64,000 nt of DNA from Planctomycetota bacterium (GTDB lineage: Bacteria; Planctomycetota; UBA1135; UBA2386): NCBI GenBank assembly GCA_965228735.1, contig OZ245838.1, positions 3,584,001 to 3,648,000 on the forward strand, read 5' to 3'. Position 1 is the first letter of the stretch, and each line of letters begins with the position of its first letter. Below the pieces are notes generated by a model. The model saw only the letters and a list, made by a program, of their open reading frames with translations, made no database searches and was not told the origin of the DNA. Below are positions 8,974 through 9,558 of this stretch, piece after piece. Made by a program: the position numbers and the translations under genes.

Positions 8974-9558
8974 GTGTCCGCCATCCCGCACCCGCTGAAC
9001 CCGACGGCCTGCGCCGAGCTGTTCACCGTCGTCTACGACGACCTCCAGCGCTACGCGGCGGCCGAGCTGCGGCGGCGACCGGCGACCCACGAGCTGCAGC
9101 CGGACGACCTCGTGCACGACGCGTTCCTGCGCGTTCGCGGCCGCAGACTCGCGGTCGCCGCGGAGCAGGTCGCGGCCCGCGCCGGCTTCTTCTCGGCCGT
9201 CGCTCGCGTCATCCGCGATCTGCTCGTCGAGAACGCGCGCTACCACGCGGCACTGAAGCGTGGCGGTCCTGGCCGCGGCTCGAACCGAGGCTATCGCACC
9301 GGCCTGCCAGCCGCGGTCGCCGAGTCCGACCCGCGGCTGCTCGCGACCGAGGTCGGCGTGCTCGACCTGCTCGCCCTCGACGAGGTGATGCACGAGCTCC
9401 GAGCAGCCGACGAGCGCCTGCACGAGATCGTGATGCTGCGCTTCTTCGCGCATCTGTCGCACGCGGAGATCGCCGGACTGCTGCAGGTCTGCGAGCGCAC
9501 GATCGAGCGCGGCTGGCAGCGCGCGCGGACCTGGCTGCGCCGCCGGCTCGGCGAGTGA
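8974..9558 (+). CDS. ECF sigma factor, TIGR02999/ECF43-like family
   Basis: ELFTVVYDDLQRYA, LQPDDLVHDAFLR, FFSAVARVIRDLLVENAR..KRGG, LLALDE..LRFF..EIAGLL..RTIERGW..ARTWL. Confidence 0.9.
   Translation: MSAIPHPLNPTACAELFTVVYDDLQRYAAAELRRRPATHELQPDDLVHDAFLRVRGRRLAVAAEQVAARAGFFSAVARVIRDLLVENARYHAALKRGGPGRGSNRGYRTGLPAAVAESDPRLLATEVGVLDLLALDEVMHELRAADERLHEIVMLRFFAHLSHAEIAGLLQVCERTIERGWQRARTWLRRRLGE

Follow-up and report, generated by a model that had tools for sequence, protein, structure and literature searches.

A divergent ECF43-type sigma factor, encoded directly behind a T6SS gene cluster in a Planctomycetota genome of 7.19 Mb (G000), carries Asp at the region 2.2 position that is phosphorylated in EcfK. 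We call it the QPDD sigma after its motif. Judging from sequence comparisons, we tentatively propose, as a reading that falls somewhat short of an even chance, that the QPDD sigma no longer needs phosphorylation of region 2.2 and is controlled through its own abundance. Acids at the phosphate position and a catalytically dead, kinase-shaped neighbour together suggest that it likely works without the kinase switch of its family, although among relatives the acid is not conserved and does not go with the loss of a kinase.

Gene context of the QPDD sigma

The window (the whole stretch of 64,000 nucleotides that was analysed) contains the sigma gene, the genes around it and the sites discussed below at the following positions.

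1..1279, + strand: vgrG, 3' part
1298..4477, + strand: DUF2169 and pentapeptide-repeat protein (TagA/B-like)
4474..6609, + strand: pentapeptide-repeat protein (TagB-like)
6606..7538, + strand: PAAR-like (PF13665) domain fused to an S41 peptidase-like domain
7535..8299, + strand: conserved 254-aa open reading frame of the T6SS tail, without a Pfam or NCBIfam match
8296..8811, + strand: DUF3540 protein (TagC-like; PF12059), the last T6SS accessory gene ahead of the sigma gene
8974..9558, + strand: QPDD sigma, divergent ECF43-type, 194 aa, GTG start
9091..9093, + strand: codon of E40, in place of the Thr usual ahead of the motif; the third added acid
9097..9108, + strand: region 2.2 motif Q42-P43-D44-D45 (CAG CCG GAC GAC)
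9271..9351, + strand: extended sigma2-sigma4 linker with S103, T109, S118 and T125, candidate region for a second phospho-site
9622..11265, + strand: 547-aa kinase-fold protein with a Cys-rich insertion between the lobes
12165..12995: kinase of the Kdo/WaaP family, not a Hanks kinase, followed by a methyltransferase; 2.6 kb downstream of the sigma gene

The TagC label and the Tag nomenclature follow the available part of PMC13584744. The genes tagH, tssJ, K, L, M, tagF, tssA, tssC, hcp, tssE, F, G, clpV and vgrG all scored above NCBIfam cut-offs, and the cluster, which is single-copy in G000, extends about 21 kb upstream of the window. The sigma gene shares the + strand with these genes and follows the last of them at a distance of 162 bp. 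Its attachment to an injection-system locus, as described from the letters of the DNA in a preliminary description of the window, is supported by a T6SS cluster directly upstream.

The same gene order was found in three further genomes (G716, G018 and G595), and the sigma gene is present only in G000 and G716. The PAAR-like/S41 fusion is conserved at loci L044, L045 and L099, and the 254-aa frame is syntenic there. A search of the sequence fetched for the four syntenic clusters, those of G716 and G018 each being divided over two contigs, revealed no Hanks kinase. In the gap between tssC and hcp (G000:C1:3574455-3574500), the hcp leader contains GTCAGTTCTGA twice, with a partial third copy.

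Family membership and integrity of the gene

The translation of the QPDD sigma contains HELQPDDLVHDAFLR. It matched PF07638 (Sigma70_ECF) with 103.1 bits against a cut-off of 21.1, a domain listed as a feature of ECF43 in the supplement of PMC7826278, and TIGR02937 with 50.5 bits (cut-off 42.9). TIGR02999 was its best family by far, at 120.5 bits just under the cut-off of 126.15. This was the lowest score among the 17 TIGR02999-type copies in G000, 16 of which exceeded the cut-off, while the clade members P0004 and P0005 scored above it with 146.6 and 149.3 bits. In a quick tree of sigma factors, built without a non-ECF43 outgroup, the clade P0002-P0005 (SH-aLRT 100) was nested among Thr-type ECF43 rows. 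The predicted structure is helical, with a mean pLDDT of 69. The QPDD sigma thus appears to descend from within ECF43, in agreement with the family assignment of the preliminary description. Since it is without two defining features of the family, the Ser/Thr phospho-acceptor that stands in place of the acidic motif and an adjacent kinase, it is better regarded as a variant than as a regular member.

An assembly error was rejected as the origin of the four motif codons. Positions 8700-9900 are covered by contigs from the runs X2, X3 and X8, and 9040-9190 by a contig of X10, all without a single differing letter, and some of these contigs possibly come from the same source as the DNA of the window. 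A sister strain of about 97% identity (X12, X13 and partly X19) retains QPDD with a synonymous change in the third base of the D45 codon. The motif read at 9097-9108 in the preliminary description therefore stands. X10 is labelled as a coral metagenome and X12 as a macroalgae metagenome. Between the strains the gene differs by 10 synonymous and six non-synonymous changes (pN/pS 0.24, binomial p = 0.004), and hence it is under purifying selection. A clade-specific DNA pattern gave no matches in metagenome contigs, and an orthologue search of 60 relatives returned only generic ECF43 proteins of 41-45% identity.

An acid at the phospho-acceptor column

ECF43 sigma factors lack the DAED motif, according to the accessible part of PMC8999054, and EcfP has STTA instead, of which the second Thr is phosphorylated. 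The canonical E and D columns contact beta' (PMC8999054 and PMC13147305, each available in part). For EcfK, the supplement of PMC13147305 gives the phosphopeptide LQATELVHEAW with T51 as phosphosite; within the part of that paper covered here, T51 is reported to be kept in 88% of ECF43. The phosphopeptide aligns without gaps, which places D44 of the QPDD sigma on the T51 column. The alignment proposed in the preliminary description thus puts the phospho-acceptor where it had been expected. In a profile of 69 homologues compared with a solved canonical ECF in the PDB, D44 and D45 fall on the E and D of the canonical TAED motif.

Among 83 other homologues, the D44 column holds Thr in 78 and Asp in none, with Asn, Ser, Ala, Gly and Val once each. 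The D45 column is acidic in 10 of the 83, and also in EcfK. At the column of residue 40, Thr prevails (66 of 83), and the two Glu both occur within the clade of the QPDD sigma. Four acids within residues 38-49 were seen in two of 100 aligned sigmas, the QPDD sigma and its syntenic orthologue P0005; residues 40-45 are free of Ser and Thr likewise in two of the 100, the QPDD sigma and P0003. The preliminary description had treated both Asp residues as replacements in the phospho-motif. This is correct for D44, which occupies the acceptor column, but D45 corresponds to an acid already present in canonical ECF sigmas, the second Asp of their motif.

Degenerate DNA patterns were used to search 251 genomes of the order. 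The Thr pattern gave 1,126 matches in 189 of these genomes, a count that misses divergent copies, as the pattern recovers nine of the 15 Thr paralogues of G000. The Asp/Glu pattern gave three matches: the QPDD sigma and two identical FDPEDIVHDV motifs, one of which (L059) was a non-ECF43 sigma on a profile scan. With the other (L060) judged by its identical motif, the QPDD sigma is the single ECF43-type acid match in the order. An acid at the T51 column is rare in ECF43-type sigmas.

The acidic DxxD patch is nevertheless incomplete in the QPDD sigma, in which motif positions 3 and 4 are restored and position 1 is not. We propose that QPDD goes part of the way back to the canonical acidic patch and is not a specific mimic of phosphate.

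Hanks kinases near and far

The kinases of ECF43 sigmas are typically encoded at +1 (PMC7826278, available in part). The QPDD sigma departs from this trait, as a motif and profile search of G000 found no Hanks kinase within 51.6 kb of it. The earlier observation that no recognisable Ser/Thr kinase is adjacent hence holds for Hanks kinases, but the +1 gene does encode a protein with a kinase fold, from which the catalytic residues are missing. A profile derived from kinases of G000 itself counted 82 Hanks kinases in this genome. The other 16 ECF43 paralogues of this genome have Thr (15) or Ser (one) at the T51 column, and 14 of them adjoin a Hanks kinase. Two QATA paralogues (G000:C1:2350687-2351217 and 5636594-5637085) have no Hanks kinase within 61 and 40 kb, respectively. 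The orphan status of the QPDD sigma is therefore not special, since Thr-type paralogues can also be without a near kinase.

When applied to 401 genomes from across the phylum, the acid pattern matched nine times, hitting the QPDD sigma, four non-sigma sequences and four further ECF43-type sigmas (L055, L056, L057 and L058) with the motifs QADD, RTDD, EPES and ETDG; the Thr pattern matched in 115 of the same genomes, at least 477 times. Three of the four acid-column sigmas passed the TIGR02999 cut-off, and the one with RTDD scored 103.6. They grouped apart from the QPDD sigma in the quick tree, and all four adjoin Hanks kinases, in which the catalytic-loop motif is HRDLKPxN in three cases and HCDLKPSN in the fourth. 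Because these cases keep their kinases, an acid at the T51 column is not readable as kinase independence. The preliminary description had suggested comparing Asp at this column with the presence of an adjacent kinase, and on that comparison the acid is not tied to kinase loss. The sigmas at L055-L058 are natural cases that bear on a second phospho-site.

At another T6SS locus, in genome G011 (C7, L061:3760-4317, - strand), an ECF43-like sigma of independent origin also has no Thr in region 2.2; its motif is HVAD and its TIGR02999 score 99 bits. The genes there stand in a row of Hanks kinase, HVAD sigma, a member of the kinase-fold family described below, and tagH. The Hanks kinase, upstream of the sigma, is large and contains Ig-like and FGE-sulfatase-like domains.

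The part of PMC13147305 covered here reports that EcfK (motif QATE) is constitutive and kinase-independent with T51E when overexpressed, that T51A remains functional via T106, and that T51A/T106A is non-functional, so that either site suffices. With T106 able to stand in for T51 in EcfK, region 2.2 is not necessarily the sole gate. The term 'hard-wired on' used in the preliminary description goes too far, as it ignores the linker site; S103, T109 and S118 remain in the linker of the QPDD sigma, and the genome has 82 Hanks kinases. It is conceivable, although we consider it unlikely, that Ser or Thr residues in the linker still gate the sigma by way of an unlinked Hanks kinase, in which case the acids would only lower the threshold. 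The activation of EcfK by T51 or T106 (PMC13147305), the four residues S103, T109, S118 and T125 of the extended linker, the Ser/Thr-rich linkers of P0004 and P0005, and the 82 Hanks kinases all speak for this route, and the kinases kept by the other acid-column sigmas imply that kinases still have work there. The register of T106 is ambiguous, however, falling on G110 (Asp in the sister strain) in one alignment and on S118 in another, and no candidate kinase was identified. Moreover, if either EcfK site is sufficient, a pre-charged region 2.2 should already activate the sigma.

Orthologues and order of events

The clade P0002-P0005 shows the motifs QPDD, QPND, RATE and EPTE. An acid at position 45 is common to the clade, and three of the four members have an acid at position 40. 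The nearest orthologue of the QPDD sigma, 86% identical, has QPND and thus Asn at the acceptor column. It is split into P0003 and P0238 (120 aa and 66 aa) on one contig of 4,457 bp, which also carries the gene of the kinase-fold neighbour; the split may reflect a pseudogene or an assembly error. The EPTE orthologue (L044, G716) keeps Thr, and its gene order is as in G000, with sigma and neighbour conserved at 47-51% identity. The fetched stretches of the G716 locus contain no Hanks kinase. The branch to P0002/P0003 is long (0.76).

If EPTE reflects the ancestor, kinase loss would have preceded the loss of Thr, since the EPTE orthologue is already kinase-less. The sequences suggest a stepwise order, in which an ancestor joined the T6SS cluster without its kinase and with Thr still present (EPTE, as in G716). 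Acids would then have been gained around the motif (E40 and D/E45), and the replacement of Thr by Asn (QPND) and Asp (QPDD) would have come last. The codon path from Thr via Asn to Asp consists of single-base steps. The idea in the preliminary description that a natural phosphomimetic has replaced the kinase survives in part: there is an acid at the column and no Hanks kinase, but the Asp is not conserved, being replaced by Asn in the 86%-identical orthologue and by Thr at the kinase-less locus of G716.

This variability also fits a reading that we hold to be just as unlikely as gating through the linker, namely that the QPDD sigma is a passenger under weakening selection, with QPDD the product of drift after kinase loss and other sigmas driving the T6SS. 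The four members of the clade differ at the acceptor column (T, N or D), the QPND orthologue is in two pieces and the branch of 0.76 is long. Furthermore, the clusters of G018 and G595 have no such sigma and yet carry the promoter-like element ahead of tagH, and the sixteen other ECF43 paralogues of G000 could read an ECF43-type promoter. However, the frame is intact with a pN/pS of 0.24 between strains, intact orthologues exist at about 50% identity, and the split of P0003, seen on a single contig, may be an assembly error. The changes around the motif are also biased to acids, as compensation predicts.

A kinase-fold family next to the sigma gene

The 547-aa product of 9622-11265 has no match in Pfam or NCBIfam. 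Its AF2 model (pLDDT 90.3) gave no Foldseek hit at E <= 0.001 (best 0.038), and the ESM Atlas returned no usable match. VIA-align reached a Z of 13.1, and all 50 of the 50 rows listed were protein-kinase domains; PknS and PknB aligned with a Z of 12.2 and an rmsd of about 4 A over about 225 residues. A profile of six family members searched against the PDB yielded protein kinases in 11 of 11 matches, all weak (best E 0.1). The protein is hence predicted to have a protein-kinase fold. Its catalytic residues are missing: the beta3 Lys is replaced by A78, the catalytic-loop Asp by G370 and the DFG-like Asp by P400, with columns assigned from the family alignment rather than from a residue-level structural overlay.

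The neighbour belongs to a family with 232 representatives and seven conserved Cys. Of 339 genomes of the class, 40 contain this family. In family alignment A2, the Lys column holds K in 56 of 106 rows, the catalytic-loop column D in 20 and the DFG-like column D in 57, and all three residues are kept in 11. T6SS genes occur at 10 of 11 distinct wider family loci (L045 and L098 counted once). In 27 scanned members, picked to include long ones, an FHA domain was found in eight and T6SS_FHA_C as well in five. The three short copies linked to a sigma form one branch (support 83), are shorter by about 150 residues and lack Lys, Asp and Asp, whereas both Lys and the catalytic-loop Asp persist in P0089, P0090 and P0092, full-length copies on the sister side. 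At family loci L061-L089, members often precede TagH or are fused to it. Seven proteins of about 270-310 aa (P0134, P0141, P0145, P0148, P0164, P0169 and P0198) resemble the neighbour in its C-terminal lobe only and possibly form a stand-alone subfamily.

We considered whether the neighbour is a decayed cognate Hanks kinase and rejected this, as it belongs to a distinct T6SS-linked family that is also present in the syntenic clusters without a sigma. Being a T6SS accessory protein without catalytic residues, it is not expected to phosphorylate the sigma. The family possibly has a TagE-like or scaffold role. It resembles the TagE/PpkA-TagH pathway (PMC13584744, available in part) in its kinase fold, its tie to T6SS and its frequent position before, or fusion to, the FHA protein TagH. 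Unlike TagE/PpkA, the family has no Pkinase match above cut-off, contains the Cys-rich insertion and mostly lacks the catalytic Asp.

The neighbour could also act by binding. A constitutively competent sigma might be held by the downstream dead kinase, an anti-sigma factor on a kinase scaffold, so that sequestration replaces the phospho-switch; we consider this improbable, more so than either of the two alternatives above. The kinase-fold gene does occupy +1, the usual spot of ECF43 kinases, the sigma-linked branch did lose Lys, Asp, Asp and about 150 residues while the three sister copies named above retained the first two of these residues, and in G011 an unrelated ECF43-like sigma lies directly upstream of a family member. 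Yet that correlation amounts to one evolutionary event, and the family is mostly T6SS-linked without a sigma, with an ECF43-like sigma within 1.5 kb at one of 29 other loci (G011). Members are fused to FHA/TagH domains, and the catalytic Asp is missing from most of the family anyway (present in 20 of 106).

Promoter-like elements

In G000, G716 and G018, tagH is preceded at a distance of about 30-105 nt by an element of the form TGTCG-N14-CTG(A/G)C(A/G)G, of which G595 has a variant. The element was derived by eye from the sites of G000 and G716 and widened for G018.

G000:C1:3562566-3562591 (L042:567-592); L108:15154; L110:2781; L112:2768: tagH element

The predicted ECF43 promoter is GTC (-35) and CAG (-10) in the available part of PMC7826278. 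The tagH leader of G000 reads GTC-N15-CTG, without CAG, so that the element resembles the predicted promoter in part. There are eight copies in G000, no genome-wide enrichment over a reversed control in 91 genomes, and no copy ahead of the sigma gene. The element also occurs in the clusters without the QPDD sigma (G018 and G595). It predates the sigma or is independent of it, and is hence no proof that the QPDD sigma reads it. The search for a common promoter motif that the preliminary description had recommended thus yielded an element shared by the syntenic clusters, but one that is not enriched, also occurs without the sigma and is absent before the sigma gene itself.

A second candidate, TTGC-N15-CGxTC, common to the leaders of tagH, sigma and neighbour, was rejected, since 273 of 2,025 shuffles reached its score and its 80 genome-wide matches show no peak at that spacing. 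A scan of 8700-11400 for sigma-70 promoters and terminators found none.

Discussion

Our preferred reading, that the QPDD sigma is released from phosphorylation of region 2.2, can be put as a mechanism. We infer that D44 and two further acids would let the sigma bind RNA polymerase, leaving phosphorylation at the T51 column unneeded, and that control would then fall on the amount of sigma made. In this reading the protein would behave like an EcfK that is charged in advance. If the tagH element is a target promoter, positive feedback would follow; such feedback is possible because the sigma gene stands co-directionally behind the T6SS genes and an element resembling an ECF43 promoter lies ahead of tagH. 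A more elaborate version, in which a T6SS-dedicated ECF43 offshoot with a built-in acidic patch and positive feedback through tagH is restrained by a co-decayed pseudokinase, forming a sigma/pseudokinase switch, seems to us the least probable of all the readings.

Comparison with known systems places the QPDD sigma between two types. Like EcfK with its kinase PknS in Xanthomonas citri (PMC13147305, available in part), it is an ECF43-type sigma in a T6SS cluster, and the region 2.2 frame is the same, QATE versus QPDD, both acidic at position 4. EcfK has T51, T106 and a transmembrane Hanks kinase, whereas the QPDD sigma has Asp and no near Hanks kinase, and its +1 gene encodes a dead kinase-fold protein without recognisable Hanks motifs. 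The covered part of PMC13584744 places TagK downstream of EcfK, which acts partly through it, and also describes the TagE-TagH pathway. EcfP, with PknT in Vibrio parahaemolyticus, belongs to the same family and has its phospho-acceptor in the same column (STTA). EcfP, as far as its published description was available, has a motif without an acid and is inactive until phosphorylated, whereas the QPDD sigma has four acids in residues 38-49. Like a canonical DAED ECF, which is expected to bind beta' without phosphorylation, the QPDD sigma has acids at motif positions 3 and 4 and after LVH. Unlike it, the QPDD sigma has Gln instead of Asp at position 1, and its sequence groups with ECF43. No anti-sigma factor for the QPDD sigma was recognised. 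In the literature covered, which does not include the original EcfP paper, we found no publications on natural acidic ECF43 sigmas or on the neighbour family.

ECF43 is the model for phosphorylation-activated sigma factors. One syntenic locus here offers a natural series of EPTE, QPND and QPDD, with no Hanks kinase wherever its context was seen, and this series is suited to asking how much charge region 2.2 needs and how a signalling input is lost. The neighbour defines a T6SS accessory family with a kinase fold that has no name as yet. If the QPDD sigma is active, it would be a natural kinase-independent ECF43 that controls an injection system.
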